Assembly: GCA_963849325.1 (NCBI GenBank)
Contig: CAWKHF010000012.1
Location: 320,001-384,000, forward strand
DNA: 64,000 nucleotides
Source of the DNA: an uncultured Planctomycetota bacterium
GTDB taxonomy: Bacteria; Planctomycetota; Planctomycetia; Gemmatales; Gemmataceae
Reading direction: 5' to 3'
The position numbers and the translations under genes are program-made. Under the pieces are notes generated by a model, which searched no databases, was not told where the DNA came from, and worked only from the letters and a program-made list of their open reading frames with translations. Below are positions 4,086-28,731 of the stretch, one piece after another (the stretch's first letter is position 1; each line of letters opens with the position of its first letter).

Positions 4086-4109
4086 AAGGATGATCCGCGA
4101 GAGGGACGC

Positions 4110-4256
4110 CTATCGCATGGCTCGTCTGCTCGCTGGCTGGTTCGGTGGTTCACCGGCACTATCTTTGCGGCGAGCAGGCAGCGCCCGGACCTCGGGGGCA
4201 AGCTCTGCCTTCACACGTTTCTCGTCCCAGCCGGGGGGAAATGTCTGCTTGTTCAT
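4110..4256 (-). pseudogene. Short remnant of a small hypothetical protein (FPPGWDE-type N-terminus)
   Basis: MNKQTFPPGWDEKRVK start; appears internally deleted; recognised from memory only. Confidence 0.3.
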
Positions 4257-4315
4257 TCCGCATCCGCTTGTTGGACCAACCGTTCCTCCGCGGCGATGGG
4301 TTAGGAGCTGTCGTT

Positions 4316-5041
4316 TCATCGACTCTGACGCTTCCACCAGACGGTCCACTTGTCGGGATCATCCCCGAGCCTCTGCTCGGTAAGAACTTCCAGACCTTGT
4401 TGCGCTGATTCTTTGAGGTCCGGGTCGCGCAAGAGTTCGATGAGAACGGGGACCGCCCGCCTGTCGCCCAGCGCACCTAAGGCGTAACAGGCCAGGTCAG
4501 CTGGCGAGGAACGGATGCAGTTGAGCGTCTTGCCGTTCGTATCGCCGCCCCGGCCTTCCTTGTCCTTGGTAAGGGCCACGATTTCCGCATACGCTTCTCC
4601 GGCTTTCATCTCTCCCAAAGCGGCCACGGCGATGCTTCGCACGTATGGAGACTTGTCCTTGAGAGCGTTTCGGAGGGTGGGGATCGCCCGCCGATCCTTG
4701 AGGACACGTAACGCGACCACAACATTGTCGCGGTCCCGGCCGCTGACCTGGGGAAGATCGACCATCATGACGGGGACGCCACGGAAGTCGCCCAGCTTAC
4801 CGAGAGCCAGGGCCGCTCTCCGTCGGATCTCAACCTCTGGGGACTTCAAGCATTCGTGAAGACGTTTCAGGGCCATCTCTTTTTGCTCTCCGGCCAGATC
4901 GGCAATCGACTTCGCAAAGGGATCGGTCAGAAGGACCGCCTTGGGGTCATGGAACGCATCCCAGTCAATCGCTTTGCACGTCTGGGCAAAGGCGAGCACG
5001 ACGAGTAGAGCACTCGCCATCAATACGTGTACGAATCGCAT
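4316..5041 (-). CDS. Secreted HEAT-repeat protein
   Basis: Signal peptide MRFVHVLMASALLVVLAFA, repeated VR..AA.ALG helices, SD AAGGAG upstream. Confidence 0.8.
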   Translation of the reverse strand: MRFVHVLMASALLVVLAFAQTCKAIDWDAFHDPKAVLLTDPFAKSIADLAGEQKEMALKRLHECLKSPEVEIRRRAALALGKLGDFRGVPVMMVDLPQVSGRDRDNVVVALRVLKDRRAIPTLRNALKDKSPYVRSIAVAALGEMKAGEAYAEIVALTKDKEGRGGDTNGKTLNCIRSSPADLACYALGALGDRRAVPVLIELLRDPDLKESAQQGLEVLTEQRLGDDPDKWTVWWKRQSR

Positions 5042-5220
5042 CCTCTTACTCCTTCCCTCTGGTTTGCTCACGCCTGGAGCAACCTGTCGCGGTTGCCGCG
5101 CAACCTTCACGGACTCGCGCAGCCTATCCCTATTTTCCCTTGTATCCCGTCCGAAACCATCTCGTCAAGGAAAGAATGATGTTCCGCGTTCCGTTCCGCG
5201 GAGATTGGGTGCTGCGCGGT

Positions 5221-8128
5221 TCACCAGCGTAATGGCTTCTGCCACGCTTCCTTGAGGGCCGCCAGCGGTGCCCAGATGATCCATTCGCCGCTCGCCCCGG
5301 CGATGCGCAGGCGCGGTTCCTCGCACGTCTGCCCAATTGGTGTCAACGGGGTGTCACTTCCGAAGCACGAGCGGAACGCGGCCTCCTTGTCGGGTCGCAC
5401 CTCGACGACGAAGCGCGTCGTCGATTCGCTGAACAGCAGCACGTCGTCCGGCAGGCGCGGCATCGCCCAGGCGCGTCACGTCGGCGCCGATGCCGCCGGC
5501 GAAGGCCATCTCCGCCACGGCGACGGCCAGGCCGCCCTCGCTCAGGTCGTGGCACGAACGCACCAGACCGGCCATGATCGCCTCGTGCAGCTTGCGGAAG
5601 ATGCGCGGCGCCAGTTCCAGGTCCGGCCGCGGCACCGTCCCGCCGTCGAGTCCGTGCACGAGGTGGTAGTGCGAGCCGCCCATCTCGTCCCTGCGTCGCG
5701 CCGACGAGGAACAGGAGGTTGCCCGGCTCCTTCAGGTCCATCGTCACGCAGCGGCGCACGTCCGGGACGCGGCCCAGGGCGCTGATGAGCAGCGTCGGCG
5801 GGATGACGATGTTGCCGGCCGCCGGAGTGATATTCGTTCTTGAGGCTGTCCTTGCCGCTGATGAACGGCATGCCGTAGGCCAGGGCCACGTCGCGGCACG
5901 CCTCGGCCGCGCGCACCAGCGAGCCGAGCACCTCCGGCCGGTCGGTGTTGCCCCAGCAGAAGTTGTCGAGCAGGGCGATCCGCGACGGGTCGGCGCCGAC
6001 GGCGACGACGTTGCGCACCGCCTCGTCGATGGCGGCGGCGGCCATCGCGTAGGGGTCGAGGTCGCCGTAACGCGGGTTGATGCCGCAGCCGACCGCCAGG
6101 CCGGTCCACGAGCCGAGCACCGGCATGACCACCGCCGCGTCGCCGGGGCCGTCGTCGTCGACGCCGACCAGCGGCTTGACGACGCTGCCGCCCTGGACCT
6201 CGTGGTCGTACTGGCGGATGATCCATTCCTTGCTGCACACGTTCGGCGAGGCGAGGATTTTCAGCAGGACGTCGTTGAAATTCTCGGGGCGAGCGGGGGG
6301 CGTCAGCCCCCTGTTGGGTGTCAACAGGGGGCTGACACCCCCCGCTCGCCAAGTCGCCTGGCGCACCACCGGCGGCCGGCCGTCGTGCAGGAAGTGCAGG
6401 TCGAGGTCGGCGACCTGCTGCCCCTGGTAGAACAGCCGCAACCGGCCGGTCGCCTCGAAACGGCCGAGGACCGTCGCCTCCACGTCTTCGCCGGCGCACA
6501 GTTCCTGTAACTGCGGCCACGTCTCGGGCGGCACGGCCAGGACCATGCGCTCCTGCGCCTCGCGAGATCCAGATTTCCGTGTACGACAGGCCGGCGTACT
6601 TCAGCGGCGCCTGCTCGAGCTGCACCGCCGCGCCGAGCTCCTCGCCCATCTCGCCGACGGCGGAGCTGAAGCCGCCGGCGCCGCAGTCGGTGATGGCGTG
6701 ATACAGCCCCTGGTCGCGCGCCTGCAGCAGCACGTCCAGCAGCTTCTTCTCGGCGATGGCGTTGCCGATCTGCACCGCGCCGCCGCTGACCTTCTCCGAC
6801 TCCGCGGTCAGCTCGACCGAGGAGAACGTCGCGCCGTGGATGCCGTCGCGGCCGGTGCGGCCGCCGACGGCCACGATCAGGTCGCCGTCGCGCGGCTCCT
6901 TGTGGCAGCGGTCCACCGGGAGCAGGCCGACCGTGCCGCAGTAGACGAGCGGGTTGCCGAGGTAGCGGTCGTCGAAGCAGACGGCGCCGTTGACGGTCGG
7001 GATGCCCATGCGATTGCCGTAGTCGCGCACGCCGGCGACGACGCCCTTCATCACCTTCAGCGGGTGCAGCACGCCCGGCGGCAGCGACTCCGGCGGCGTG
7101 TCCGGCGGCGCGAAGCAGAAGACGTCGGTGTTGCAGATCGGCTTGGCCCCCAGGCCGGTGCCGAGCGGGTCGCGGATGACGCCGCCCAGGCCGGTGTTGG
7201 CGCCGCCGTAGGGCTCGATGGCCGACGGATGGTTGTGCGTCTCCACCTTGAAGCAGACGTGATAGCGGTCGTCGAAGCGCACGACGCCGGCGTTGTCCTC
7301 GAAGACGCTGACGCACCAGTCGTCGGCGCCGAGCCGGCGGCGGACCTCCTGCGTGGCGGCGAAGATCGTCTCCTTGAGCAGGTTGTCGTAGCGCCGAACG
7401 CTGCCGTCCTCTCGCTGGAACTCGATGCGGCCCTTGAGCGTCTTGTGCGAGCAGTGCTCCGACCACGTCTGGGCCAGCGTCTCCAGCTCCACGTCGGTCG
7501 GGTCGCGGCCCAGCTCGCGGAAATGGGCCTGGATGGTCCGCATCTCGGCGAGGCTGAGGGACAGCTGGCCGTCGCGGCTGAGCTTCTCCAGGGCCGCGTC
7601 GTCCAGGTCGCGCAGCGGCACGGTGACGAGCCGGAAGCGAGTAATCGGAGCCGAGGCTCAGGTGATCCAGGGTCAGCGGGCCGGCGACGACCTGCTCGAT
7701 CGCCTCGTTGGCGAGCACCTTGCGGAAGAGGACGGCCCGCGCCTCGGGCGGCGCCGGCGGGCCGAAGTAGCGGCGGAAGGTGCGCACCGACGCCGACGGG
7801 GATGCCGAGGTCGCGGGCGGCCTCGACGACGCTCAGCGCGGTCGGGTCCATCACGCCAGGCTTGAGCAGGACCGTGGCCAGGTGGTCGGGCGCAGGTGTT
7901 CGTTGAGGGTGCCCAGCCGGCCGGACTCGACGAGCGGATCGACCAGCAATTCGTCGGCCAGGCGCTTCGCCTGCGGCGCGACAACTCGCCCTCGACGAGA
8001 TAGCCGCGCGCCGTGCCGGTGATCCGCTCGGCGCCGTCGCCTGTGTGCGTCAGCAGGTCGTATTCTTCACCGACGCGCCGGCGCTCCCCATCGTCGCCCC
8101 TGGGCTGAATCTCGATCTCCCAGAACAT
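5221..8128 (-). CDS. purL: Phosphoribosylformylglycinamidine synthase subunit PurL with N-terminal extension, frameshifted
   Basis: [62 protein letters not shown] and HDLSEGGL motifs. Confidence 0.95.
6288..6350. repeat. 63-bp palindromic element lying in frame inside purL
   Basis: 29-bp arms with 1 mismatch and a 5-nt loop; encodes [20 protein letters not shown]. Confidence 0.8.
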
Positions 8129-8779: not shown

Positions 8780-9519
8780 CTAGCCCTGCCATTGCTTGAC
8801 GATGCTGAGCAGGGCGATCGCCGACGACCACACGACGCCGGCCAGCCCCGCCGTCACGCCGGTCATGGCCAGTCCCCTTCCGGCCAGGTGTGCCTTGCCG
8901 TCGATCTGCCGCAACGCCAGCCAACCGAGGACCAGCTCGCCGCTCGCCAGGACCAGGGCGATCAGACAAAATACCAGCGCCACGACGACCCCATTCTCCA
9001 GGGTCATGTAGACACCGATGGCCATGAAGGTCAGGAACAGGCTGACCACGGTGCTGACCAGAGCGAGGATGAAGGCGAGGAGGGCGAGCGGCGCCAGGCG
9101 GGCCGGCCGACTCAGGCCGCGGACGCGGAAGTTCTTGCACGGCCCGCACAGTGTCTGCCCTTGCAATGCGACCACACAGGCGGAGCAAAACGAGGCGTGG
9201 CAGGCGTCGCAGGTCGCTTCCCTGGGCGTCTCGTCGTGGTTGAGACAGTAAGCGGGGTTGGGACGGTGTCGGGCGCGCACGCGGCGCGGCGGCAAGGCTT
9301 CCGGCTCGGGCCAATCATCCTCGGCGGTCGGCCGGGGGTGCGCGGCCGAGACGACGGCGGCATCGGCTGGGCCTCCTCCGGTTCCGGCTCGGGGACCGTG
9401 CTCGACCACGGCACGCGATTGCCGTGGCCACATTCGCAGAAAACGAGCGTGCCGGACAGGTGCTCGGCCCGGCCGTGGCGCTTTCCGCATTGCTTGCAGG
9501 CGAACCAAATATGTCTCAT
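8780..9519 (-). CDS. Zn-ribbon/B-box zinc-finger membrane protein (DUF4190-like C-terminus); one frameshift; start codon supplied by the integrated element
   Basis: MRHIWFACKQCGK...FCECGH joined by a frameshift to CLNH...CDACHASFCSAC...CGPC and TM helices ending GRGLAMTG. Confidence 0.75.
9490..9507 (+). repeat. attL core direct repeat TTGCTTGCAGGCGAACCA
   Basis: Identical to 19116-19133. Confidence 0.9.
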
Positions 9520-9522
9520 AAT
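9494..9522 (+). promoter_or_regulatory. Putative sigma70 promoter of the integrase overlapping attL
   Basis: TTGCAG-N17-CATAAT; SD AAGGAGG at 9545-9551 before ATG 9558. Confidence 0.5.
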
Positions 9523-9557
9523 AGATCGTCCTAGCCGCTCCCGAAAGGAGGAATAGA

Positions 9558-11216
9558 ATGGGCGACATGCCAAGACGCGCGTACTCCTACCTTCGGTTTT
9601 CCCACCCCAAGCAGGCTACCGGGGACACCATCCGAAGGCAAGAAGAATGGACCGCGAGCCTGTGCCGGCGGCACAGCTGGTATCTCGATGACACCCTACG
9701 CTTTGCAGACAAGGGGAGGTCCGCGTTTCACGGCGGACTCAAGGCGCTAGGGCAGTTCCGCGACCTGGTGCGACGCGAACGCATCGCGCCCGGCTCGGTG
9801 CTCGTCGTGGAGGTGCTCGACCGCATCTCCCGCGAGGAGGTTGATGATGCTTACGACATCTTCCGAGAGATCATCCGGGCCGGCATATGGATCGCTACGC
9901 GGGAACCGGAGCGCATCTATACCCGCGAGACGTGTGCTGGGAACATGCTCAATCTGCTGGAACCGCTCTTCATCTTTGCACGTGCCCACGATGAGAGCCG
10001 TGCAAAGTCTATGCGTATCCGGGAGGCGTGGGTGCATCAGCACCGAAAAGCGAGAGAGGAAAAGCAGCCGATCCAATCGCGGCCCCCTTGGTGGCTAAGG
10101 AAGGGGCAGCACGGTTATGAGTTGATCCCAGAGCACGCCGAGGCGATACGGCAGATGCGAACGCTCTGCCTATCCGGGCACGGGTACACCCAGACCGCAG
10201 GGGAATTGGCCCGGCGGCTGTTTCGCCCGCCCGGACGGAACTGGTGTATCGAGACCATCCGAAGTACGCTGAAATCTCGTCGCACGCTCGGCGAGCACCA
10301 GCCGGGACACAAGATCAAAGGCCGGCTGGTGCCGGACGGACCACCGATCCAGGGATACTACCCGACTATCTTCACTCCGGAGGAGTGGGAGGCCATACAA
10401 GGGGCGATCCAGCGCAGACAACGCAACAAGCCGGGACGGCCAGCGAAGGAATGCGCCAACCTCTTTACCGGGTTGGTATTCGAGGCGAATTCCCGGCTAC
10501 CTATGTCAAAGGGGTCCGCACGGCCGCAGCATGGGGGGAAGAAATACAACAGCCTCAAGTGTAGGAACGCTTATTATGGGATGCCGCTCTGCCGCGTTCC
10601 CTACGAGTCGCGTAGGGGACAGCCGGGATTTGAGGGGTGCGTGTTAGACACCATCGCGATGCTACGTCCCCAGGACGTGCTTGACGACGAGCGGCGATCC
10701 GACGAGCGGGAGCACCGCATCGACGCACTGACCAAACGTGTAACGGCCCTGGCACATCGCCGGGGACAACTGCAGGCGGCGGCAGCCGACCCAGAGCAGG
10801 ACGCCGCAGACATTCTACCAGCCCTGGCGACAGTACGTCGGGAGTTGGAAACGGCGGCGAAGGAGTTGAATGCCCTCAAGCTCGAAAGCCAGACAGGCCG
10901 GGCGGAAGCGCTAGCAGAGTGCCAGACGCTACAGGAACTGCGGCAACGCGCCCAGGGCGAGGAGCGGCAGGAGTTAGACCGCCGCATCAAGGCGGCGCTA
11001 CCGTCGATCATGGAATCCATCTGGATACAGTGCCAGAGAGTATCTACCCGGCATCAGATCGTACACATCCAGATATGGCTACACAGCGGCTCCATGCGCT
11101 ATGTGCAGATGCTGCCACCGAACCTCCACGGCGTCAAGCCGTGGCAGCTGGAGGAACACGACCTACGCAAGGGGCATTATGTAGGCGACGCTACAAATAT
11201 GGCCCAACCGGCGTAG
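9558..11216 (+). CDS. Large serine recombinase (resolvase + recombinase domains + coiled coil)
   Basis: AYSYLRFSHPKQATGDTIRRQ catalytic Ser motif, DKGRSAF, LVVEVLDRISRE, ESRAKSMR, YYPTIFTPEEW, NLFTGL. Confidence 0.93.
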   Translation: MGDMPRRAYSYLRFSHPKQATGDTIRRQEEWTASLCRRHSWYLDDTLRFADKGRSAFHGGLKALGQFRDLVRRERIAPGSVLVVEVLDRISREEVDDAYDIFREIIRAGIWIATREPERIYTRETCAGNMLNLLEPLFIFARAHDESRAKSMRIREAWVHQHRKAREEKQPIQSRPPWWLRKGQHGYELIPEHAEAIRQMRTLCLSGHGYTQTAGELARRLFRPPGRNWCIETIRSTLKSRRTLGEHQPGHKIKGRLVPDGPPIQGYYPTIFTPEEWEAIQGAIQRRQRNKPGRPAKECANLFTGLVFEANSRLPMSKGSARPQHGGKKYNSLKCRNAYYGMPLCRVPYESRRGQPGFEGCVLDTIAMLRPQDVLDDERRSDEREHRIDALTKRVTALAHRRGQLQAAAADPEQDAADILPALATVRRELETAAKELNALKLESQTGRAEALAECQTLQELRQRAQGEERQELDRRIKAALPSIMESIWIQCQRVSTRHQIVHIQIWLHSGSMRYVQMLPPNLHGVKPWQLEEHDLRKGHYVGDATNMAQPA

Positions 11217-11357
11217 GCAACTGACCGCGAGCGCACAGTCGGCGTAAGCATCGGGAGGCCCGGAAAACCGCCGGGCCTTCGCCATCTCGGCGACCCAGGA
11301 ATCCCCATCCCAGAAGAAGCCGAACGAAGAGAGGACCACGAAGCAACCGCCAAGCAT
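11163..11357 (-). CDS. Small hypothetical protein, convergent with and overlapping the integrase 3' end
   Basis: SD GAGGGG before ATG 11357; FFWDGDSWV..AKARRF. Confidence 0.45.
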   Translation of the reverse strand: MLGGCFVVLSSFGFFWDGDSWVAEMAKARRFSGPPDAYADCALAVSCLRRLGHICSVAYIMPLA

Positions 11358-11628
11358 GATGCACCCCCTCGGTAGCAATCATGCACGCGCCACACCGCGT
11401 TTTCGTCACCACATCCTACCAAGCCCAACCAGATTCTCAGGACCAACGCCGGTAACTGTCAAGCAAGGGTAAGAATCCGCAACGCTGGAGCACTCAACCG
11501 CACGACACGGCCTGCCCTAACAACCGGGCTTTCCACACGCTTGTCCGCAACTATCAGTTTGCACCCGACCGGGTAGGTTGTAGTCTTGGTGAGTCCTGAA
11601 CGCTCCCTTACCCACGGCAGAGGTTGAC

Positions 11629-11865
11629 ATGAAACCAAAATTGCTGACCATCGCCGAGGCGAGCAAGAGACTAAACGTGTCCGGCACCACGCTACGGCGG
11701 ATGATCCGCACCGGCGAATTCCCGCCGCCCGTTCGGCGGAACAGCCGCTGGGTCCGTGTCCCGGCATCGGACATCGAAAACTACCTGACCAAACTGGCGG
11801 AACGCCGCCAGACCGAGCAACCCCGACACCAGGCCGACACCACCGGCCGCCAATTGGAGACATGA
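11629..11865 (+). CDS. Excisionase/AlpA-like helix-turn-helix protein (likely recombination directionality factor)
   Basis: LLTIAEASKRLNVSGTTLRRMIRTGEFPPPVR...WVRVPASDIENYL; SD GAGG. Confidence 0.85.
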   Translation: MKPKLLTIAEASKRLNVSGTTLRRMIRTGEFPPPVRRNSRWVRVPASDIENYLTKLAERRQTEQPRHQADTTGRQLET

Positions 11866-11868
11866 ACC

Positions 11869-13114
11869 ATGAAAGCCCGCGTTTTGAAAGCCTTCGACGA
11901 TTGCAAGGCCGGCGACATCATCGACGTGCCGCGAGCCACGAGCAATTTCGCCGTGCAGAGAGGCGATTTGGAGGAAATCAAGGACGCTGAAACCCTACTC
12001 GCGCAAAAGGTCCGTCGCGCGATCGAAAGGCGCACGATCAGGAAAAAAGTCAGGTCGCTGGAGAGGCCCGCGTTGAGCTTCGGCCAGTTCCTGACCCTGC
12101 TAGCCAAGAGTGGAGGCCGCGACTTCCCCGCGCTCGCCCAGAAGGCGGCGCTGAACGAAGCGTCTGGGATCGAGGGCGGTTATCTCGCGCCACAGGGCTT
12201 CGCCAAAACTATTTTCCAGGCCAGCGAGCGGGGCCGAATCCTGCGCCGGAGCTACCCTATTCCCCACGAGCCACCGTGAAGAGTTAATCCCCTTGTGGGA
12301 TATGACAACTCCACAGACGGCCGGCACAACGCCGTTCTTCGGCGGGCTGAAATTGCAGTGGTACGAGGAAGGAGTCGAACCGGCCGAAAGTGAACCGGCG
12401 ACCAAGCAGCTGGCGATGGTCCCGAACTATCTAGGCGCGCTGGTGTTGGCCTATAACGCTTGGCTCGCGGACGCCGCTCGAGGGACCGTAGAAGCGTGGC
12501 TCTTGGCCCTGTTCGGAGAAGCCGTGGCGTGGTACGAGGAATACGGCTTCCTCCAGGGCAAGGGGGCGGGCCAACCGCTCGGCATCCTCAACAGCGGCGC
12601 AACCATCAACGTCAGCCGCGCTGTCGCCGGCGACATCGAGTTCGCCGACATTGGCGGGATGCTCAACAAGCTACTTCCGGAGTCCATCAATCGCTGTTTC
12701 TGGATGTACTCGCCGACCTGTCAAAGCGCCCTGATGCAACTCAAGGACGGCGCGAATCGGGCCGTGATGCTGCAAGTCGGAGCGACGCCCGCCGGACGCG
12801 GACAGTGGACCATCGCCGGAATCCCTGCTTATCCGACCGAGAAGTTGCCAGCCCTAGGGACCAAGGGAGACCTCGTACTCATCGACCCGCGCTGGTATGC
12901 AATCAGTGACTTCATAGCCGAGGAGGGACAGCCGGCGGGCGGCGGTCGTAGCCTAGCCGTAAGTTTCTCTGGCGAGGCGAGTCAGACGGTCTTCACCAAG
13001 AACCAGACGGTCTTTATGATTTCACAGCGCCTCGACGCACGGCCGGTTATCGACAGCCCCATCACCTTGCAGGACGGCGTGACGCAGGTGTCGCCGTTCG
13101 TGGCCCTTAACTAA
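11869..13114 (+). CDS. HK97-fold phage major capsid protein (~414 aa once one extra C near 12262-12265 is removed)
   Basis: GGYLAP, WYEEG..AESEP, FLQGKGAGQPLGILN, LMQLKDG, GIPAYPTEKLPALGTKGDLVLID, FTKNQTVF..QRLDARP, SPFVAL. Confidence 0.88.
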
Positions 13115-13240
13115 GACATTTGGGCTCCGCGAACACGGCGAGGCGACGGATTGCCTAGCCGTGGAGTCGCGCCACGGTGATGCTGAACCTTTTCGTGCAA
13201 TCCACATCGAAAACTACCCGCAAGCCTTGAGGGAGAAGAC

Positions 13241-14215
13241 ATGAGCAGCCTGGCCGACGAAATCATTGCCGCGATGGAAGCGGGCGGAACCAAGAAGGAA
13301 CCCGCAACGTTCGACGAGGTAGACGCTTTCCATCTCCAAAACGAGGCCGAACAAGTGTTGAAGTACCTCCCGCTACTCGGACAAAGCGGCTACCTCGTCG
13401 AGGGCTGGTCGCACCTACTCGCCGGCTTCCCCCGCGTCGGCAAGTCCGAATTACTCTACGCCTGCATGGTCGAATGGTTACGAGCGGGCCAGACCATTCT
13501 CTACTTCACCGAGGAGGGCCGTGAGCTATGGCGGCAACGACTTCAGCGCCAACGAGTACCCGCCGAGGGATTACAACTGGTGTTCGCGCTCGGTGGCAAG
13601 TCCCTGGACCTCCTAACGCGGATGAGGAAGAGTGGGGAGCCTATCGTTGTGATCGACACCATCCGCAGCCTGCAAGTCCTGCCGGCCGACGAGAACGACA
13701 ACGCCGCCGTCGCCCGCGCCCTCGAACCCTGGGTGACTGCCGCACGCGAGATGAGCAAGACCCTGATTCTCAGCCACCATGCCCGCAAGGGAGGCGGCGA
13801 GCACGGCGAGGGCATCTCCGGCGGTCATGCCCTCTTCGGGGCCGTGGACGTGGCCCTGGAAGTCTGCCGCAGTACGACACCGGCTCGGCGGATCATCAAG
13901 GCCCATGCTCGCCTAATCCAGCCCGCCGACCTCCTCTACGAGCGGGACGAGGATGGCAGCCTGGCCGCTCTCGGCGATCCCAGCGGCGTCGGCCTGGCGG
14001 AAGTCGGCCGCCGCATCCTCGACGTGATGGATCACCAATGGGCCAAGACGGCCGACGTACACGACCGCCTGGAGGAACCCCGGCCCAGCGCGGAACAACT
14101 TCGCCTCGCTCTGGCCGCCGAGGCCCGCTGCGGCCGCCTGGAACGCGATCCGCCCATCAGCGTCGCCAACGTCCAGGGCAAGACCACTCGCTGGCGGCTC
14201 CTCGGAGGCGAGTAA
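13241..14215 (+). CDS. AAA/RecA-fold ATPase (RepA/SF4 helicase-like) with C-terminal wHTH-like region
   Basis: Walker A AGFPRVGKSEL, Walker B IVVIDTI, LILSHHARKGGG, ISGGHALFGAVD. Confidence 0.82.
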   Translation: MSSLADEIIAAMEAGGTKKEPATFDEVDAFHLQNEAEQVLKYLPLLGQSGYLVEGWSHLLAGFPRVGKSELLYACMVEWLRAGQTILYFTEEGRELWRQRLQRQRVPAEGLQLVFALGGKSLDLLTRMRKSGEPIVVIDTIRSLQVLPADENDNAAVARALEPWVTAAREMSKTLILSHHARKGGGEHGEGISGGHALFGAVDVALEVCRSTTPARRIIKAHARLIQPADLLYERDEDGSLAALGDPSGVGLAEVGRRILDVMDHQWAKTADVHDRLEEPRPSAEQLRLALAAEARCGRLERDPPISVANVQGKTTRWRLLGGE

Positions 14216-14332
14216 CTTCACTTCCCACCTATAGGAGAGACCCCCTTGTATGTGAGGTGAAGAAAAGTGAAGCGAAGCGTTTACGCTTCACTTTCTTCCC
14301 ACAGTCCCTCTCTTAAGGAGGGAAGTTCAGTT
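14214..14332. other. Large imperfect inverted repeat directly after the helicase-like gene (candidate replication origin)
   Basis: AAAGTGAAGCG/CGCTTCACTTT core; outer arms AACTTCACTTCCCACCTATAGGAGAG vs rc AACTGAACTTCCCTCCTTAAGAGAG. Confidence 0.55.
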
Positions 14333-14363
14333 CATCCAGCGCTCGACACCAACCGGAGGCATC

Positions 14364-14606
14364 ATGTCTGAACTGAAAGACGTTGTAAACAAACTGTGCA
14401 AAGAGCTTGACCGGCTCTTCCACACGCCGGACCTCTTGCACCGCGAGCAAGGTTATCCCAATCTAGCCGAACTTCTGGCTAGCATTAACGCAGGCATCCA
14501 CCGAGCCGCCGACGCTCTCGACCGGATGAACCCGCCGCCACAACCGCCGCCGTTCGTGCCGGAGGGCTTCACGGACGCGGAGTTGCTGGCCGGCAAGGTC
14601 AAGTAG
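14364..14606 (+). CDS. Hypothetical protein (80 aa, helical)
   Basis: SD GGAGG, clean ORF co-oriented with the element core. Confidence 0.65.
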   Translation: MSELKDVVNKLCKELDRLFHTPDLLHREQGYPNLAELLASINAGIHRAADALDRMNPPPQPPPFVPEGFTDAELLAGKVK

Positions 14607-15198
14607 TGTCCGTCCGCCGCACTCACGGCCCCAAGCGATGTCGTCCAGGCGTCGTTTCGGGGCCGATTCCTGCACCGCCAGCAGGCCAAGCTGCACCTTT
14701 CCTGTCGTCCCGCTGCACACCCTCGACAAAACCTCCACAACCGGCATCGCAGCCTTTTCTTGTCCATATACCGATCAAATGTTCACTAAAGCGATAAACA
14801 AGAGGAGTGAAGGTAGATCGTGTTGCCGGGATGGCCGCGTTTTCCGGGCTGGGAGGGTAGGTTGCGTCCGGCAGCTGGGAGGCGCGTGCGGGGGTGCGTG
14901 CGGCCCCTGCGCCGCCCTCCGCGTCCCGGCGGCCGTGGCCCGCACGGACGCTCTGGGCGGCTCCGGGCCTACGGTGCGCCGGGACGTATCCGCCGCCCCC
15001 TGCGGCCGTCTGTCCCGCTGCCCTCACGGCGACGGACAGACGGCCTGCGGGCGGCTCGGTGGTGCGTGTGTGTGTGTGTGTGCGGGGCTGTACGCCCCCT
15101 GGTGTCGCGCAGCGACACCGCCGTCGCTGCGCGACGGCTGCCGGCCCTTACAGGCCGGCGGGGGCTGCGGTGTGCGTGCTGCGGGACACATCGCGGTG

Positions 15199-15404
15199 AG
15201 ACCCTGCCTTGCGTGCCCGGCTGCCTGCTGCTGCCGGCCCAGGTGGTGCGCGACATCACGGCTGTTCGTGTTGATGGCCGGCAGCAGCAGGCAACTCGGG
15301 CTCGTGTGGGGCAGACCGTGCCTTGCGGGCGCACCGGCATCTGGCTGCGGCCCAGGTAGTGCGCGACATCCCGGTTGTTCGAGCTACGGCCGCAGCCAGA
15401 TGCC
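15199..15404. repeat. Two tandem 114-bp-period structured units: conserved leader and loop, different perfect stems
   Basis: Stems 15222-15239/15276-15293 (18 bp) and 15336-15352/15388-15404 (17 bp); loops 26/29 identical. Confidence 0.85.
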
Positions 15405-15543
15405 ACCACGTCTACATTCGGCAACCGCATCCATGCGGGGTTCGAGGCGGGCAGGACGCCCGCCAGCTGGCCCATGACGACGAGGATGCGGCTCCAGCAG
15501 ACCCAAGGCCACGGGTGGCCTTGGGCTGCTGAGCTTCCTACGG

Positions 15544-15757
15544 ATGCAGGGACGCAGCCTGCGGAGCATTGCCGAGGAGGAGGGGGTGAGTCAGGAACAG
15601 GTACGCAAGGATTCTCGATCCTGCTGTCAACCAGTTGACACCTGACCTACCACCCGCCCAGGTGCTCGGCAAGGACGGCAAGGCGTATCCGGCGGACAAC
15701 TCCGCACGCAAGCCCGCGCTACCCGGTCCCGTCGTGGACAACGCCGCCGCTCCGTAG
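15544..15757 (+). pseudogene. HTH fragment with GKDGKxYP motif (resembles the C-terminal part of phage ParB-like proteins); one frameshift
   Basis: MQGRSLRSIAEEEGVSQEQVRKD / LDPAVNQLTPDLPPAQVLGKDGKAYPA; absent from the ORF track. Confidence 0.6.
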
Positions 15758-16463
15758 TCGGCTCCTCAGCATTTTCTTATTTATAAGACCGCTAGCACCC
15801 GTGCTTGCCTATCTTCGTTCCGTTCCCCCACGTCATCACGCCCAGCCTTCCCGCTGTCACGCCCTCTCGTGTTCACCGCGTCGCGTCATGGGCCATCCTG
15901 GCCCATAGTCGCGTCGCGGCGGGCCATCCTGGCCCTCAAGCTGTGGGCGGGTGCCCCGCCCCTGTTTGTCTCCGCGTCACTCGCGGTCGGGTTGTGACGG
16001 TGTATCGTGACCCTACCCGTCCTGCTGCTACCGCCGTGCCCTAGCAGATGCTTACCCGGTTTCCACGGCGTCGTAAGACAGACTAGCCTATGAGGTCCGC
16101 AGAGCACACCCGGCCAGACAGAAGCATTTTGAGGTCGTTCGTGTCGTACTGGCTGACGAGTCGTCACGTCCTCCCCCGCCCGCGACAGATTCCGCCAGTG
16201 TCGCGGGCGGCCTTTTTGGCCCCCGCGACACTGGCGGCTTCCGCCCAGGGGGGCGGAAGTGCGGTAGTGCGTAACGGTGTGTCGTGCTGTGACGCTCAGC
16301 ACGTCGTCTCGCCCTCCCCCCCGCGTAAGAACGCCGCCGGAGCGCGGGTTGTCCCCGCGTCCGGCGGCGTCGCAGCCCTTGCAGGCTGCGAAGAAGCTAC
16401 CAGGCGACGTCGTGACAGCCCTATTCGATGCTGCGAGGTTGACGGGTCATCATGCGCTGCTCT

Positions 16464-16509
16464 TTTCTTTTCTTTTCTCTTTTGAGTACAAAAGAGAAAA
16501 GAAAAGAAA
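16464..16509. repeat. Perfect 21-bp pyrimidine/purine palindrome with 4-nt loop
   Basis: TTTCTTTTCTTTTCTCTTTTG-AGTA-CAAAAGAGAAAAGAAAAGAAA. Confidence 0.9.
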
Positions 16510-16587
16510 CAAAAGAAAAGAGAAAACAAAGACAGACACTCACACGCCCCAAGGGACAGGATGACGGTCAAACCCGTGAAATGATCG

Positions 16588-16760
16588 CGTTTTGTCCAAG
16601 TGCCCTAGGTGCTGTTGTAGCAGGTATGTCAAGGTAGGTTGATTAAAAGCAATTTTGCTGTCAGAGAAGTTGTACGGTCAATGAAACTAGGCAAAATTGC
16701 TTTTAATCATTCCACCTTGACTACCTGCTATTACATCATCAGGGGCACTTGAACAAAACG
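16588..16760. repeat. AT-rich ~70-bp imperfect inverted repeat with 32-bp spacer
   Basis: Arms 16588-16658 and 16691-16760, about 60/71 matched by hand, innermost 19 bp perfect. Confidence 0.9.
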
Positions 16761-17069
16761 GGTTAGACTTGCACGGGGAGGCGAGTGCGACCCGCCATTA
16801 CACGCCGGGTCGGAGAGGGAGGAGGAGGAGGAGGAGGAGTGGGGTGGGGGTGGCGCGGGCCGCAAGCGGCTCATATGTTCATGTGTTCATAGTTCATCGT
16901 GGGTCGTTGGCCGGTCTCCCCGCTGGGTGCCGCTGCGCTGGGCTGGGATGGGTGGTTACGGTCGGGGGCTGGGCGGCGGCCGCCTCCGGCGGCCGCCCGG
17001 TGTCTCCTTGTGCTCTCCGCCTTGTCCGTGTTTTTGTGCGGTTTTTGCGGGTTTTTCTGCATTTTCCTC

Positions 17070-17099
17070 TTGACAGCTACATGTCGTTTGTGGTAGAAT
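17070..17099 (+). promoter_or_regulatory. Near-consensus sigma70 promoter of the element's cargo operon
   Basis: TTGACA-N18-TAGAAT with TGn extended -10; helically phased T-tracts upstream. Confidence 0.75.
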
Positions 17100-17177
17100 C
17101 GCTGTCTGCAATGGCGATGGGGGGCGGTTGGCCCCGCCCCCCATCTAACCCGAACCCCGTGCTAGCGGAGTCGAGTC

Positions 17178-17507
17178 ATGTCTAAGGGTATCCGTTCGTC
17201 GTCGGTCTGTCTATTCCACATTACCCCCCGCCGCAATCTCCAATCGATCTACAAGTTCGGCTTGCTGCCGTGCTTCGCTCGGGGCGTGTTGCGTGCCGTC
17301 TGGCTGTGCTCGGCTTCCCGCCGCCGCTGGGCCGCCGTCCACGTCGAGGACCAAAACTGGACTTCGGACATCGTTGTCATCCGCCTCATCCTGCCGCGTG
17401 CCTGGCTCCGCCGCTTCCGTCGCGGCATCTGGCATTGCTCGCAGCCGATCCCCCCCTCGTGCATTGTGTCCGTCTCCGCCCCGTCCCCGCTGTCCCCCGC
17501 CGCCTGA
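17178..17507 (+). CDS. Small ADP-ribosyltransferase-fold protein (KptA/Tpt1 C-domain or DUF952-like)
   Basis: LFHITPRRNLQSIYKFGLLP, AVWLC, VVIRL, GIWHCSQPIPPSCI; SD GGAG. Confidence 0.6.
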   Translation: MSKGIRSSSVCLFHITPRRNLQSIYKFGLLPCFARGVLRAVWLCSASRRRWAAVHVEDQNWTSDIVVIRLILPRAWLRRFRRGIWHCSQPIPPSCIVSVSAPSPLSPAA

Positions 17508-17564
17508 ACTCTTGGCCCGCCCGATCCGCCGCCCAGCGGATCGGCCTTCTTGGAGTATTCGGAT

Positions 17565-17936
17565 ATGTCTACTCGTTCATATCGTCTGTGCTTGCGCATC
17601 GACAACGGCGTGGAACGCCACTACGCCGTCCGCCCGCTGGCAGCTGCCGACCTGGAAACGCCGTTCCTGTGCGGCTATGCCCTAACGGAACGCACGCAAA
17701 ATTCACACCCGACCTACCATGTCCGCCTTGCCGCCGATGGCATTGTCAACTGCTCGTGTCCGCAGTGGAACAAGGCCGAGACCTGCAAGCACGCCGACGC
17801 CCTCGTGGCCGCCGGCCTGCTGCCGGTGCGGCTCGTCGAAGTGCTCGCCGCCACCCGCCACTTGCTCGACCTCGCCGAAGCGAAGATCGCCGCCATGCCC
17901 AAGCCCCGATCCCGCAAGAAGAAGACGGACAACTGA
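17565..17936 (+). CDS. SWIM zinc-finger protein
   Basis: YHVRL..CSCPQWNKAETCKH (CxC...CxH); SD GGAG; basic tail. Confidence 0.8.
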   Translation: MSTRSYRLCLRIDNGVERHYAVRPLAAADLETPFLCGYALTERTQNSHPTYHVRLAADGIVNCSCPQWNKAETCKHADALVAAGLLPVRLVEVLAATRHLLDLAEAKIAAMPKPRSRKKKTDN

Positions 17937-17988
17937 TCGTCGCCACGCGGACCGGCCGCAAGGCCGGTCCCCTCGACACGGAGGAAAC

Positions 17989-18342
17989 ATGGCCCGACAC
18001 CGCAGACCGAACACCGCCGACGACCGCCGCCAGCTACTGGCCGCTGCCGCCGCCGTCCTCGGTGTCGCCGCCGACGCAGTTATTCTCGTCGCCGGCGCCG
18101 TCGAGATCGTCCGCCCCGAGCCGCAGCCGGTTCGTCCTGGCCGACTGCCCGAGGGCATGAGCGCCTACGATGCCGCCATTCTGGGGGCGCTCGCTGACAG
18201 GCCATTGTCAGCCCAGCAGATCGCCCACCGCAGCGGACACCGCCACAACAGCTACTTTCGTGGCCGTCTCGCCGCTCTTGTCGAGGCAGGCCACGTCCGA
18301 CAAACCCGCCGAGGGTACAGTCTCGGCGGGCCTGGCAGGTAG
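17989..18342 (+). CDS. Winged-helix DNA-binding protein
   Basis: AILGALADRPLSAQQIAHRSGH..SYFRGRLAALVEAGHV; SD GGAGG. Confidence 0.7.
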   Translation: MARHRRPNTADDRRQLLAAAAAVLGVAADAVILVAGAVEIVRPEPQPVRPGRLPEGMSAYDAAILGALADRPLSAQQIAHRSGHRHNSYFRGRLAALVEAGHVRQTRRGYSLGGPGR

Positions 18343-18416
18343 CAGCTGGCAATCGTCTACTTGTTCCTGCCGGCGGGGCGGGTATCCTCGCCGGCATCAC
18401 TCACAGGAGGTTTCCC

Positions 18417-18635
18417 ATGCTAACCATCGAACGCCGCGCCTTCCTCGAAGCGATCGTGCTTGCCGCCCTCATCCCCAACTGGCAGCGAACCAACCCCTTC
18501 GAGCCACCCGAGCAGACCCGGCAACGCCTTGCCGTCGAGGCGCTCAAGATTGTCGATTCGTTCCTACGCGTGACCGGCGACGCGAACTTGCCGCCCCTCG
18601 GCGTGCCGGCCAACGACCCCAGCGTTCCCTTTTGA
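18417..18635 (+). CDS. Hypothetical protein ending NDPSVPF
   Basis: SD CAGGAGG, clean ORF. Confidence 0.65.
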   Translation: MLTIERRAFLEAIVLAALIPNWQRTNPFEPPEQTRQRLAVEALKIVDSFLRVTGDANLPPLGVPANDPSVPF

Positions 18636-18708
18636 ACGATCCGCTCCGCGCCCTCGGCGACGTTCGCCCAGGGCCGGGCGCTTCCCATCGCCCACGGAGG
18701 TTTGCACC

Positions 18709-19038
18709 ATGAAGAAGCTCGTTGCCGTCGCCGTAGCCCTCGCCGCCCTGGGCGCTGGTCGCGCCGAGGACAAGACCGCCACCCAGAAGCCCGACGAGCC
18801 AGCCCCGGTCATCGTCAAGACCCAGCTGCCCCGGTACTTCAAGCAGCTCGGCTTGACCGACAAGCAGCGGAAGGAGGTCTACAGGGTCCGTGCTGGCTAC
18901 GCCGCCAAGATCGCCAAGCTCAACGAGGAGATCGCTACCTTGCGGTTGAAAGAGAAGGGCGAGGTCGAGGGCGTTCTGACCGAGGCTCAACGGAAACGCC
19001 TCCAGGAGATGCGGGCCGGCTCCGATTCCAAGAAGTGA
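18709..19038 (+). CDS. Secreted small helical protein, Spy/CpxP (LTxxQ)-like
   Basis: Signal peptide; LGLTDKQ and VLTEAQ motifs; SD GGAGG. Confidence 0.75.
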   Translation: MKKLVAVAVALAALGAGRAEDKTATQKPDEPAPVIVKTQLPRYFKQLGLTDKQRKEVYRVRAGYAAKIAKLNEEIATLRLKEKGEVEGVLTEAQRKRLQEMRAGSDSKK

Positions 19039-19115
19039 CACACCAGGCATCGACCGGCCGGGGCAACTCGGCCGGTCCCCATAAGAGGGCAATGATGAGA
19101 ACAAAGTCCCAAACC

Positions 19116-19133
19116 TTGCTTGCAGGCGAACCA
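19116..19133 (+). repeat. attR core direct repeat TTGCTTGCAGGCGAACCA
   Basis: Identical to 9490-9507. Confidence 0.9.
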
Positions 19134-19135
19134 GA

Positions 19136-19924
19136 TCATGATGTTTTCTCGCTCGAACGCACGGCGTCACCGGGACGTTCGCCGAGGACCGCCGCCATTT
19201 GCAGCACGAACTTCTCGGCGCTCTCGTACTCGCCCGGCGTCAGGTCGAGGCGCTTCTCGAAGAACTGGGCGGCGGCCTGGAACAGCCGGGCGCGTTCGAG
19301 GACGCGCAGCTGATCGCGGCGCAAGCACAAGTCGAGCAACGTCTGCTTCTGCTCGCGGTCGAGCTGGACGAGGCGTTGACGGAGCAGCGCCAACCGCTGA
19401 CGGTCGGCCTCGCTGCGCGCGTCGGGCAGGGCCAGGATCGGCTGGACGTTGCGCTCGACGTGAACCACGAGGGTATCCGCGGCCAGGTCGCCGAGGCGGC
19501 GCTGCTCGCGATTGCCGGCGGCGACGGCGAAGCCGAGCAGTCCCGGACCCAGAGGCAGCGGCACGGGCAAGCTGTCGGCGACGCGCAGCAGATTGCGAAC
19601 CGCCGACTGAAAGAAGGTGATGGACGTGCCGCGCCACTGGATGACGCGAATGCCGAGCAGGTACTTGCCCGGTGTTTGTCCGTGCCAGAGCCATTCAAAA
19701 AAGATGAAATAACCCCACAGGACCACGAACTGTCCGATCACGATCACCGCCATGCCCAGGCCGGGCCGGCCGAGCGTGAGGACGCCACCGACGACGGCGC
19801 CCATGACGATCAGCAGCAGCACCGCCAGCGCATCGATCAGCCAGGCCAGGAAGCGCGAACCCAGCCCGGCGACGCGGTAGCGGAACGGCACTTTCTCGGT
19901 GGTGAGCACCTCATGGCGGATCAC
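19136..19924 (-). CDS. RDD family membrane protein
   Basis: AGLGSRFLAWLID, GQTPGK..GIRV, RRLGDLAADT; GTG start overlaps the SpoIIM stop. Confidence 0.9.
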   Translation of the reverse strand: MIRHEVLTTEKVPFRYRVAGLGSRFLAWLIDALAVLLLIVMGAVVGGVLTLGRPGLGMAVIVIGQFVVLWGYFIFFEWLWHGQTPGKYLLGIRVIQWRGTSITFFQSAVRNLLRVADSLPVPLPLGPGLLGFAVAAGNREQRRLGDLAADTLVVHVERNVQPILALPDARSEADRQRLALLRQRLVQLDREQKQTLLDLCLRRDQLRVLERARLFQAAAQFFEKRLDLTPGEYESAEKFVLQMAAVLGERPGDAVRSSEKTS

Positions 19925-20919
19925 GCCTGGTCCTCCCGCGCCGCCGCTCGGCCCCAGCCGAGCAACAGAATGTAGGCCAGAAACAGCAGGGCGAAGACGG
20001 CGGCGACGGCCAACTTCAATCCCTTGCCGAGAAACCAGTCCGGCGCCCGCGCCACGCCAGCCTCCAGACACGCAGCCACGGCCAGAAGCGGCACACAGCC
20101 GAATAGCATCAGCACCGACTGCTTGCCTAGGCGAGCCAACTCCTCGCGCCGCGGCCACGGCCGCGCTCGCAGGAAGCCCTGCGCCAGCACGAAGCCGGCC
20201 GCTCCGCCGATGAGGCAAGCCGGGATCTCCAGCACGCCATGCGGCAGGATGCCGGTGGCGTAGGCCGTCAGCTGATGGGCCTCGGCGAAGACGGAGCCGA
20301 GAGCGCCCAGAAGAACGCCATTATAGAACATCAGCCAGGCCGTGCCGAGTCCGAGCGTGATGCCCAGGGCGAAGGCGACCAGGCTGACGCTGACGTTGTG
20401 CGTGAACAAAAAGCTCGAAAACGCGGTCAGGTCATCCGTCGTGTACATGGGCGCGGCCTGCTCCTCGCCCTCGGCCGGCGGCTGGATGGTCGGCATGTCC
20501 GTGGGCAGCAGGTAGGCGCGGGCAACCTCCTTGTCGTAGGTGCAGGCCAGGTAGCCGAAGACGGCGCCCGCCGCGAACAGCAGCGTGGCCAACAGGAAGT
20601 GCGGCAGGTAACGACGAAAGACGGCCGGGTAGCCCCAGAAGAGATAACGCAGCAAGCCCCGCACCTCGACGCGCGTTTTGCCATAAATGGCGAGGTAAGC
20701 GCGGGCAACCAAATCATTCAAATAGCGCTCGGTGGCCTCGCCGCTGACGAAGGTCTGGGCCTGGTTTAAGTCCGAGGCGGCGCGGCGATAGAGGCGGCCG
20801 AACTCGACGGCTTGCTCGTCGTCCAGTGAGGCCAGACCGCTGCCCTCGACACGCTGAAGGATTGCTTCGAGGCGTTTCCAGTCGGGGCGGCGCTGCCGGA
20901 GAAACGTCGCCAAATCCAT
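19921..20919 (-). CDS. Stage II sporulation protein M family membrane protein
   Basis: LYRRAASDL, FTHNVSV, NGVLLG, ILPHGVLEIPA. Confidence 0.9.
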   Translation of the reverse strand: MDLATFLRQRRPDWKRLEAILQRVEGSGLASLDDEQAVEFGRLYRRAASDLNQAQTFVSGEATERYLNDLVARAYLAIYGKTRVEVRGLLRYLFWGYPAVFRRYLPHFLLATLLFAAGAVFGYLACTYDKEVARAYLLPTDMPTIQPPAEGEEQAAPMYTTDDLTAFSSFLFTHNVSVSLVAFALGITLGLGTAWLMFYNGVLLGALGSVFAEAHQLTAYATGILPHGVLEIPACLIGGAAGFVLAQGFLRARPWPRREELARLGKQSVLMLFGCVPLLAVAACLEAGVARAPDWFLGKGLKLAVAAVFALLFLAYILLLGWGRAAAREDQA

Positions 20920-20955: not shown

Positions 20956-21098
20956 TTCACCACGGAAAACACGGAAAGCACGGAAAAAAGACAAAAAGAG
21001 AGGAAAAGAATAAAAAGTGCCGCCTCTCCTTTGACTCTTAAGTCTTCCCAGTTCTTCTTTGTCTTTTTTCCGTGTTTTCCGTGCTTCCCGTGGCGGAA
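20956..21098. repeat. MITE/REP-like element with (CACGGAAAA)-type terminal inverted triplets, copy 1
   Basis: CACCACGGAAAACACGGAAAGCACGGAAAA ... TTCCGTGTTTTCCGTGCTTCCCGTGG. Confidence 0.75.
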
Positions 21099-27770: not shown

Positions 27771-27786
27771 ACGGACGCCGTCCCGG

Positions 27787-28725: not shown

Positions 28726-28731
28726 GGGCAT

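Follow-up and report, generated by a model that had tools for sequence, protein, structure and literature searches.

How does a small chromosomal island that carries a phage capsid gene, and no other recognizable head gene, make its living? The question is raised by a 9,626-bp island within a 64,000-nucleotide stretch of DNA (the window; contig C12, positions 320001 to 384000) from an uncultured planctomycete of the family Gemmataceae. The genome, G000, comprises 8.16 Mb in 14 contigs with a GC content of approximately 70%; other genomes, contigs, and loci compared below bear G, C, and L numbers. We propose that the island is a phage-satellite-like integrative element whose logic resembles that of PICIs (phage-inducible chromosomal islands) and which belongs to a small, modular Gemmataceae family. 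We judge the chance that this explanation is correct to be about even.

The original prediction, made from the sequence alone, gave the gene order as serine recombinase, excisionase-like helix-turn-helix (HTH) protein, HK97 capsid, AAA ATPase, palindrome, small open reading frame (ORF), a stretch of 2.5 kb, and five further genes. Family searches of the ORFs bore this out. It also recognized no terminase, portal, prohead protease, tail, or lysis gene. Indeed, no island ORF matched any of these families, or an adaptor family, in Pfam, PHROG, or NCBIfam. No head-gene remnant was found by Pfam in the six-frame segments of 14.2 to 17.6 kb (0 of 49 matched), and tblastn with the proteins of the head module described below detected no large terminase (TerL), adaptor, portal, or protease in the island.

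Integration site of the island

Short two-copy repeats are frequent in this region, and the ends of the island therefore were tested against sister genomes, namely, 10 other genomes of the genus. The two direct repeats that bound the island (Table 1) are identical at 20 of 21 positions, including all of the first 18. The RDD gene of the right flank is present in 7 of the 10 genomes. At six of these seven loci (G102, G103, G104, G106, G108, and G109) the left and right flanks abut at an empty site, and at the seventh (G107) the RDD gene has a different left neighbor. In the empty-site alignments, what the left flank (to 9510) and the right flank (from 19116) have in common is the 21-nt core, no more and no less. 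The abutment of the flanks with one core in six of seven loci identifies the island as a precise 9,626-bp insertion. It is a site-specifically integrated mobile element with intact ends. The predicted 9.6-kb unit between 18-bp repeats thus was confirmed, with the repeat extended to 21 nt, and so was the view that an end-truncated prophage is unlikely.

The only mismatch between the repeats lies at core position 19, which places the crossover inside the first 18 bases. A host gene on the minus strand, which encodes a zinc-ribbon/DUF4190 protein, has its start codon overlapped by the attB core, and the island end provides a replacement start: the host protein begins Met-Ile-Trp-Phe-Ala-Cys-Lys-Gln at the empty site and Met-Arg-His-Ile-Trp-Phe-Ala-Cys-Lys-Gln in G000. 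The host gene at the left end also is split over two frames in G000.

The capsid gene, its module relatives, and the element family

As assembled, the capsid gene consists of an N-terminal part of 136 codons (11869-12279) and a C-terminal part of 273 codons (12293-13114) in the next frame. Alignment of intact relatives by tblastn passes from frame 1 to frame 2, and the one-base shift lies near 12247-12250. The C-terminal ORF matches profile positions 48 to 276 of PF05065 (81.7 bits), and the N-terminal positions are found in the other frame. Island capsid genes are intact in the short-read assemblies G104 (417 aa) and G212 (433 aa). Intact relatives, at 37 to 47% identity, match PF05065 positions 1 to 277 and TIGR01554 (4e-37). 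Judged by these matches, the island protein is a capsid protein of the phage HK97 type. Its N-terminal part is a coiled coil. Its identity to the capsids of cultured phages is 30% at most.

The break in the frame is probably an assembly indel. Of 24 long ORFs of G104, a short-read congener assembly, 16 had matches of at least 60% identity in G000; two of these were dropped, one with short spurious matches and one antisense to a real gene. Among the 14 informative orthologues that remained, 7 aligned to G000 split into two or three neighboring segments whose frames differ, i.e., approximately one frameshift per 2 kb, a rate typical of an unpolished long-read assembly. This rate suffices for one break in a 1.2-kb gene, which makes the capsid break a probable artifact. 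The completeness of the assembly (84.7%, despite only 14 contigs) also fits an assembly rich in frameshifts. Further examples lie at C7:644668-646577, C7:67714-68384, C4:414926-415796, and C6:25478-26540, and with so many frameshifts, pseudogene calls in G000 need reads.

The only other capsid gene of G000 is on contig C6. Its frame is intact, its product and the C-terminal ORF of the island capsid are 44% identical across 204 residues, and it adjoins a protease-like ORF and genes for a portal and TerL in a module spanning C6:24900-39200, which holds the only portal match (PF04860) of the genome. In G104 (L069), where the frames are accurate, the module comprises genes for a small-terminase (TerS)-like protein, a phrog_11143 ATPase/acetyltransferase, a ParB-like protein, three unknowns, a head-tail adaptor, two unknowns, the capsid, the portal, and TerL. 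Among 251 other genomes of the family, 113 have capsid relatives. In 16 places that were fetched, most sit in a TerL-portal module, and identity within the genus is 86 to 90%. Of 157 capsid relatives in IMG/VR, 80 loci were kept for context counts; portal (64 loci), protease (68), adaptor (50), and TerL (35) genes were recorded there, and none of the 80 held homologues of the island genes for orf109 or the SWIM, winged-helix (wHTH), or LTXXQ protein. An IMG/VR locus, L216, encodes a serine recombinase and an excisionase (Xis) that are 44 and 36% identical to those of the island, directly upstream of TerL, portal, protease, and capsid genes. Taken with the module capsids, L216 indicates that the island shares integration genes and a capsid gene with small TerL-portal elements. 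The module itself could represent a family of small temperate phages, or else a particle system that has been domesticated and resembles a gene transfer agent (GTA); mobile versions with a serine recombinase are present in IMG/VR (L216).

A capsid tree was built from the C-terminal 300 residues of 33 sequences, with four duplicate places and two short fragments dropped. In it, the island capsid clusters with capsids located in TerL-portal modules. The module capsids have short branches (median, 0.1), and those of the genus form a clade (100/100). Across island and module capsids, 62 alignment columns are invariant. Two of the checks set for the original prediction concerned purifying selection and kinship with encapsulins: intact frames and conserved motifs speak, indirectly, for selection, and the grouping with TerL-portal-module capsids, together with matches to PF05065 and TIGR01554 only, speaks against encapsulins. 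We also noted at least four near-identical lone capsid genes (424 to 454 aa) on four contigs of G215 (L067, L068, L071, and L072), which group with the G104 island capsid in the tree (91/89). They adjoin transposase-like genes, a TerS-like 164-aa gene, and a phrog_11143-like ATPase gene, with no portal or TerL nearby.

Relatives of the whole island were sought with orf109, the first of its five distal genes, in 267 genomes of the order. Sixteen of the resulting places were fetched; six carry orf109, SWIM, and wHTH genes together, and the other ten have orf109 in other contexts. In all, eight Gemmataceae elements, including those of the window and G104, have this trio with an AAA_25 gene as a backbone. 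A lone capsid gene lies directly upstream of AAA_25 in four: the window element, G104, G212:C99 (the intact 433-aa gene, with a full PF05065 match), and G216:C20 (capsid and AAA_25 genes in split frames). Two carry a homologue of the module small terminase (G214:C2, 51% identity; G216:C23, 46%), and two, G107 and G215:C36, have neither, with small ORFs at the capsid position. An apparent resemblance of a 130-aa G107 protein to the capsid N terminus was not supported (BLASTP E value, 0.35). Integrases were identified in six elements. Three are serine recombinases of two unrelated lineages (that of G215:C36 is 49% identical to the window's, and that of G104 is of the other lineage), and three are tyrosine integrases (G212:C99, G214:C2, and G107). 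TerL and portal queries gave no tblastn match in any of the eight, and so relatives that always carry portal, terminase, or tail genes, as a decayed prophage would lead one to expect, were not what the search returned. The predicted synteny of integrase, capsid, and AAA genes without TerL or portal recurs in Gemmataceae, with differing integrases. At the sequence level, these comparisons show that the capsid gene is maintained in half of the element family.

The closest AAA_25 homologue (65% identity) belongs to the G104 element, which consists of Xis, capsid, AAA_25, a 94-aa ORF, and, after it, a homologue of each of the five small genes. Its large serine recombinase (Resolvase plus Zn_ribbon_recom) is located after the last gene, not before Xis, and has no BLAST similarity to that of the window. 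The two elements thus have an identical circular gene order and differ only in the position of att, as predicted for the integration of a circle with different integrases. Each is absent from the other genome: G104 is empty at the window's site, and the corresponding locus on contig C7 of G000 lacks the stretch that holds the G104 element. Sizes estimated from flanking genes are approximately 9.0 to 9.5 kb for G104, G212:C99, and G215:C36, against 9.63 kb for the window element. The LTXXQ gene lies inside five of the eight elements, with homologues in G104, G107, G212, and G215:C36. Since the five-gene block recurs across the family, it is a conserved backbone; the five genes had been taken for a cargo operon, which they are not, being the most conserved core of the family.

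Several related loci were seen in the same searches. Outside the family, the AAA_25 protein has relatives at 11 loci in genomes, 38 in metagenomes, and 1 in IMG/VR; of these, the sole locus with an adjoining capsid gene is L096, a twin of G104 (100%). Homologues (53 to 62%) occur in small tyrosine-integrase elements, L055 (G038:C4), L058 (G107:C301), and L056/L057 (G158). That of G038 has an N-terminal fusion of approximately 200 aa and is followed by a ParB-like protein and a phrog_11143-type ATPase. The gap between DUF1015-like and YggS-like genes is occupied by integrative elements in L152 (G215:C36) and L057 (G158:C98), one with a serine and one with a tyrosine integrase, and may be an integration hotspot. 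A 1,629-aa Ser/Thr kinase-WD40 gene (L052:12933-17822) adjoins the G104 element; the corresponding G000 site lacks it.

Other genes and noncoding DNA of the island

The features of the island are collected in Table 1. The integrase has resolvase catalytic and recombinase domains within its 552 aa, as large serine recombinases do, and matches the PHROG integrase family phrog_95 (6e-54). No zinc-ribbon domain was found in it at an E value of 0.01, whereas its G104 counterpart has PF13408. The HTH protein exceeds the NCBIfam cutoff for TIGR01764 (34.3 versus 28.8 bits), matches phrog_66, and has MerR matches in Pfam; it is a likely directionality factor or regulator. The AAA_25 protein has weak PHROG primase/helicase matches (3e-4 to 7e-3), no primase domain, and homologues of 53 to 65% identity in five other integrative elements, and it is likely a replication protein. 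The 80-aa product of orf80 has no Pfam, PHROG, NCBIfam, or PADLOC match, and tblastn found no homologue in the G104 or G107 element; both have a 94-aa ORF at its position, without BLAST similarity to it.

Table 1. Positions of island and flanking features in the window
Feature	Position	Strand	Remarks
attL core (left repeat copy, 21 nt)	9490-9510		Single copy at empty sites of congeners
Large serine recombinase, 552 aa	9558-11216	+	Pfam Resolvase 2e-11 (PF00239), Recombinase 1.5e-10 (PF07508)
HTH_17/excisionase-family DNA-binding protein, 78 aa	11629-11865	+	Pfam HTH_17 1e-11
HK97-type major capsid gene, two frames	11869-13114	+	Pfam Phage_capsid 7.5e-23
AAA_25 (RepA/DnaB/RecA-like) ATPase	13241-14215	+	Pfam AAA_25 9.4e-15
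Long hairpin, terminator-like core 14274-14289, CTTCAC repeats	14205-14345		RNA fold -54.7 kcal/mol, z = -5.08
Small ORF (orf80), 80 aa	14364-14606	+	Codon periodicity
Stretch of ~2.5 kb with no coding signal; GC-rich hairpins, G-rich tracts, AT-rich palindromes	14607-17069		No periodicity
Sigma-70-like promoter, TTGACA-18-TAGAAT with TG	17070-17099	+	11 of 12 consensus positions; consensus match alone
orf109, ~100-aa ADP-ribosyltransferase-fold protein (Tpt1/KptA/DarT-like)	17178-17507	+	Structure model
SWIM-type zinc-finger protein	17550-17936	+	Invariant CxCPQ...CKH motif
Small protein, hydrophobic segment and C-terminal winged-helix-like part (wHTH)	17989-18342	+	Start inferred within ORF 17719-18342
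orf72, no family	18417-18635	+	Codon periodicity
Secreted LTXXQ/Spy-like protein, 109 aa	18709-19038	+	Pfam LTXXQ 1.5e-4, below cutoff
attR core (right repeat copy)	19116-19136		Abuts stop of host RDD gene
Host RDD gene	19136-20218	-	Right flank of island

The sigma-70-like site precedes the five small genes, which span 17178-19038. The structure model of orf109 (pLDDT 89.4, from a 13-sequence alignment) has an ADP-ribosyltransferase (ART) fold. Its best PDB matches in Foldseek are to the NAD lobe of Tpt1/KptA (E value of approximately 1e-4; TMq, 0.55 to 0.62), and its BFVD matches are phage proteins of approximately 100 aa named DarT, PARP catalytic domain, and RNA 2'-phosphotransferase. In the family alignment, H14, S23, and H55 are invariant and R19 and R74 nearly so; the family is present in 22 of the 267 genomes of the order, often in multiple copies. 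The motif of the next protein, which we take to be a SWIM zinc finger, has C81, C83, C92, and H94 invariant. This protein had no Pfam match, its best Foldseek E value was 0.28, and a wide VIA-align fold comparison gave a best Z score of 5.5, within the noise range. The wHTH protein has a weak Pfam match (HVO_A0261_N, 0.0056), and its homologues come after the SWIM gene in seven other elements. Homologues of orf72 are present in the G104 and G107 elements. The LTXXQ/Spy-like protein also matches NCBIfam Spy below the cutoff (2.3e-5); a paralogue of 49% identity is encoded at G000:C7:590735-591046, and in G215:C18 an LTXXQ-like gene follows the head module, approximately 3.6 kb downstream. PADLOC, run on 12 element proteins, found no defence family in the operon, its sole match being the Xis HTH (mad1).

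The long hairpin that follows the AAA_25 gene is more stable than all of 200 shuffles and has terminator-like sites on both strands; G104 has a 13-nt segment of it, CTTCACTTCCCAC, unchanged at the equivalent place. Beyond orf80, no codon periodicity was detected over 14.7 to 17.1 kb. A search of 8 to 22 kb with Rfam gave no family at the gathering score, only subthreshold microRNA-like matches on palindromes. The stretch contains inverted repeats I2, I4, and I14 and AT-rich palindromes at 16464-16509 and 16588-16760. Across 14.2 to 17.6 kb, tblastx against G104 gave tiny matches only; in the 2.5-kb stretch a few short collinear blocks are conserved, three of which are GC-rich hairpins. The hairpin at 15139-15159 shows a compensatory G-C to C-G change, and another differs solely in its tetraloop. 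Other blocks, including G-rich tracts, are kept in G107. In the G104 element, the AAA_25 gene and the homologue of orf109 are approximately 2.9 kb apart, the 94-aa ORF included. The description of this region as structured DNA therefore holds for scattered conserved hairpins, one with a compensatory change, but not for any conserved long structure. We read the 2.5 kb as putative regulatory or origin DNA with local structure; it is the least explained part of the element.

Elsewhere in the window, an inverted repeat of CACGGAAA-like units (20960-21093; 36-nt arms, 92% complementary, 62-nt spacer) lies between a SpoIIM-like gene and the next gene, with a subthreshold Rfam match only. The GC content falls to approximately 0.61 at 27500-29000, around a tRNA-Glu(CTC) gene (28732-28804), which could be another island boundary, and dips to 0.62 at 4000-5500 against a background of approximately 0.70.

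Alternative explanations and relation to known satellites

If the island is a satellite, the recombinase and HTH protein would excise a 9.6-kb circle on induction, and the AAA_25 protein would replicate it, from an origin probably located in the hairpin or the AT-rich palindrome region. The island capsid protein would build or co-build heads with a small capacity to match. A helper of the TerS-TerL-portal-protease-capsid-adaptor family, of which the same genome has one copy, the C6 module, would supply portal, protease, terminase, and adaptor, and the island would be transferred in such particles. The original prediction had the lone capsid protein remodel, poison, or replace helper heads, a role that is putative. 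The replacement of the capsid gene by a small-terminase homologue and the sizes of approximately 9.0 to 9.6 kb are as expected of satellites under a packaging constraint.

A number of observations weigh against this explanation. No TerS was detected in the island, either as a family match or by tblastn with the module TerS (Xis has a weak, HTH-level match to the TerS family phrog_57, 3.5e-5), and neither a pac/cos mimic nor a capsid-size factor was found there. Neither in C6 nor in G104 did the module show a recognizable gene for a tail tube, tape measure, or lysis. When the island was compared with C6:22000-40500, noncoding similarity did not rise above that of 30 control regions (30.1 to 39.2 bits); only capsid-coding similarity (61.7 and 42.8 bits) did. 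The capsid gene has no uninterrupted frame as assembled in G000. The two island capsids in the tree lie on very long branches (2.37 and 1.9), which could reflect relaxed constraint, and part of the window copy's length may come from assembly errors. They are not grouped as a clade, and the window copy is placed without support (28/23). Finally, the island-type context was seen at none of the 80 IMG/VR capsid loci and at one of the 38 metagenome AAA_25 loci, the twin of G104.

The dispensability of the capsid gene, which the backbone lacks in four of eight elements, invites a different reading, namely, that the island is an integrative plasmid-like element whose capsid homologue interferes with related phages, as a poison or decoy subunit, and does not serve its own transfer. 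The ART-fold/SWIM/wHTH operon may then add an addiction or defence module: the fold of orf109 resembles DarT and Tpt1, and its family is multicopy in several genomes. The island capsid also is only 44% identical to that of the resident module. However, PADLOC recognized no defence family in the operon, and a small-terminase homologue as the alternative piece points to packaging rather than to interference alone. Moreover, interference and self-packaging are not mutually exclusive in known satellites such as PICIs. We consider pure interference unlikely. Less probable than this, in our view, is that the family parasitizes the widespread, apparently tail-less head module as such, its members being satellites of a GTA-like element and not of a lytic phage. 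The backbone would then be the RepA-like, ART-fold, SWIM, and wHTH genes, and the swapped hijacking pieces would be the capsid, the small-terminase mimic, and small coiled-coil proteins. A bolder variant, to which we give less credence still, would make the capsid-bearing members self-sufficient, portal-less mini-viruses.

It is improbable that the island descends by decay from a small L216-type temperate phage, with its head genes lost and its capsid gene now a true pseudogene. The broken frame and the 2.5 kb without coding signal would suit such a history, and a deletion in an L216-like arrangement, with recombinase and Xis upstream of TerL, portal, protease, and capsid, could yield the order recombinase-Xis-capsid. 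Yet the capsid-AAA_25 adjacency recurs in four elements whose identified integrases are of differing lineages, serine and tyrosine, and the gene is intact in two accurate assemblies. Both att ends are intact and the start of the target gene is restored; the noncoding stretch has a counterpart at the same position in G104, and its six-frame segments hold no head-gene remnant. The frameshift rate of the assembly is high enough for one chance break. More improbable again is a minimal HK97 virus, autonomous and able to package its 9.6 kb with no portal, terminase, or tail, an alternative raised in the available text of PMC13669383. The gene set matches (integrase, excisionase, RepA-like ATPase, and a capsid with a scaffold-like N terminus, with no portal, terminase, or tail gene), and the size falls within the 5- to 11.6-kb class given there, but no mechanism is known for portal-less packaging, and AAA_25 does not belong to the HUH rolling-circle initiators. 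The capsid, in addition, is an ordinary PF05065/TIGR01554 protein whose closest relatives adjoin portals and terminases, and half of the family has no capsid gene. It is scarcely credible that the HK97-fold protein forms a compartment shell like that of encapsulins and is cargo of the island. A lone HK97-fold gene without portal or terminase would be in keeping with this, but no encapsulin family matched at an E value of 0.01 or less, the sequence groups with TerL-portal-module capsids, and the neighbors are Xis and AAA_25, with no cargo enzyme gene adjoining.

On balance, a PICI-like satellite remains the explanation that we prefer, and several known systems offer a comparison. The SaPIbov5 protein Ccm is said to be a capsid homologue that makes small heads and works with helper head parts; SaPIbov5 reportedly carries other packaging-related functions too and uses cos packaging. 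The island likewise has an HK97 capsid homologue as its only head protein. Most PICIs have tyrosine integrases, whereas that of the island is a serine recombinase and its AAA_25 protein has no primase domain. The core of the capsid-forming PICIs (cfPICIs) includes a portal and a protease, both absent from the island, and phiRv1 of mycobacteria carries a prohead protease and a terminase. In the available text on PICIs (de Sousa et al., NAR 2023, PMC10085698), the order is integrase, AlpA/MerR-type regulator, replicase, and morphogenesis piece, as in the island with its AAA_25 ATPase as the putative replicase, and family members differ in the helper function copied, a capsid-related gene or a small terminase, as do the island's relatives. 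Of the PICI core, the island has an integrase and, beside it, an AlpA/MerR/Stl-type regulator (HTH_17 and MerR matches). The small terminase that the same text includes in the PICI core was not found, and the TerL, head-tail adaptor, and connector of the cfPICI core are all absent (PMC10085698). The island thus resembles a PICI-type satellite in logic but fails membership of both the PICIs and the cfPICIs.

Other published elements come closer in gene content. Metagenomic mini HK97 genomes of 5 to 11.6 kb, for which a satellite lifestyle is one hypothesis in the available text (Aguilar et al., Nat Commun 2026, PMC13669383), resemble the island in size class and in having an integrase, sometimes an excisionase, a RepA/helicase, and a capsid as the sole structural gene besides a scaffold, with no terminase, portal, connector, or tail. 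At 9,626 bp, the island has both their size and their gene content. As described in that text, however, their dominant group is from the human gut and has encapsulin-type capsid domains, whereas the island protein is of phage type (PF05065 only). They are free contigs, whereas the island is integrated, with att sites, empty sites, and a candidate helper, and the ART/SWIM/wHTH operon is not among the features described there. Mycobacterial PICI-like elements, including phiRv1 and phiRv2, also are small and combine a tyrosine or serine integrase with a capsid, some with replication proteins, and those with serine integrases integrate outside tRNA genes; according to the same source, some carry terminase and scaffold genes as well, and they belong to another phylum (PMC10654092). 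The EPIPs of Mycolicibacterium (preprint PMC12822802), which are similar in size at approximately 11 kb, share with the island a serine integrase, an HTH protein, and a capsid. They have a scaffold gene and depend on a helper prophage; they also encode a small terminase, head-tail adaptor, stopper, and tape measure protein, and they have been isolated as particles.

The novelty that the original prediction claimed for a capsid-only satellite in Planctomycetota therefore stands in part. No report of phage satellites in this phylum was found in the searchable literature (main and full texts, supplements apart), and the string "Planctomycet" is absent from the main texts, supplements apart, of PMC10085698 and PMC13669383. 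Islands with integrase, capsid, and replicase genes but without portal or terminase, as far as the available texts of PMC10654092 and PMC13669383 describe them, are already in print, which makes the novelty lower than had been claimed. The island is a known kind of element in a new version and a new phylum, with a family context and a candidate helper. The published mini HK97 genomes, in the text available, have unknown hosts and no candidate helper, and the island shows the same logic in a host chromosome. From its sister elements the core parts can be told from the exchangeable ones. Planctomycete genetics could profit from the serine recombinase, whose 21-nt core is defined. With att sites, empty sites, sister elements, and a candidate helper at hand, the question of whether such elements are satellites or autonomous becomes testable in culturable Gemmataceae.

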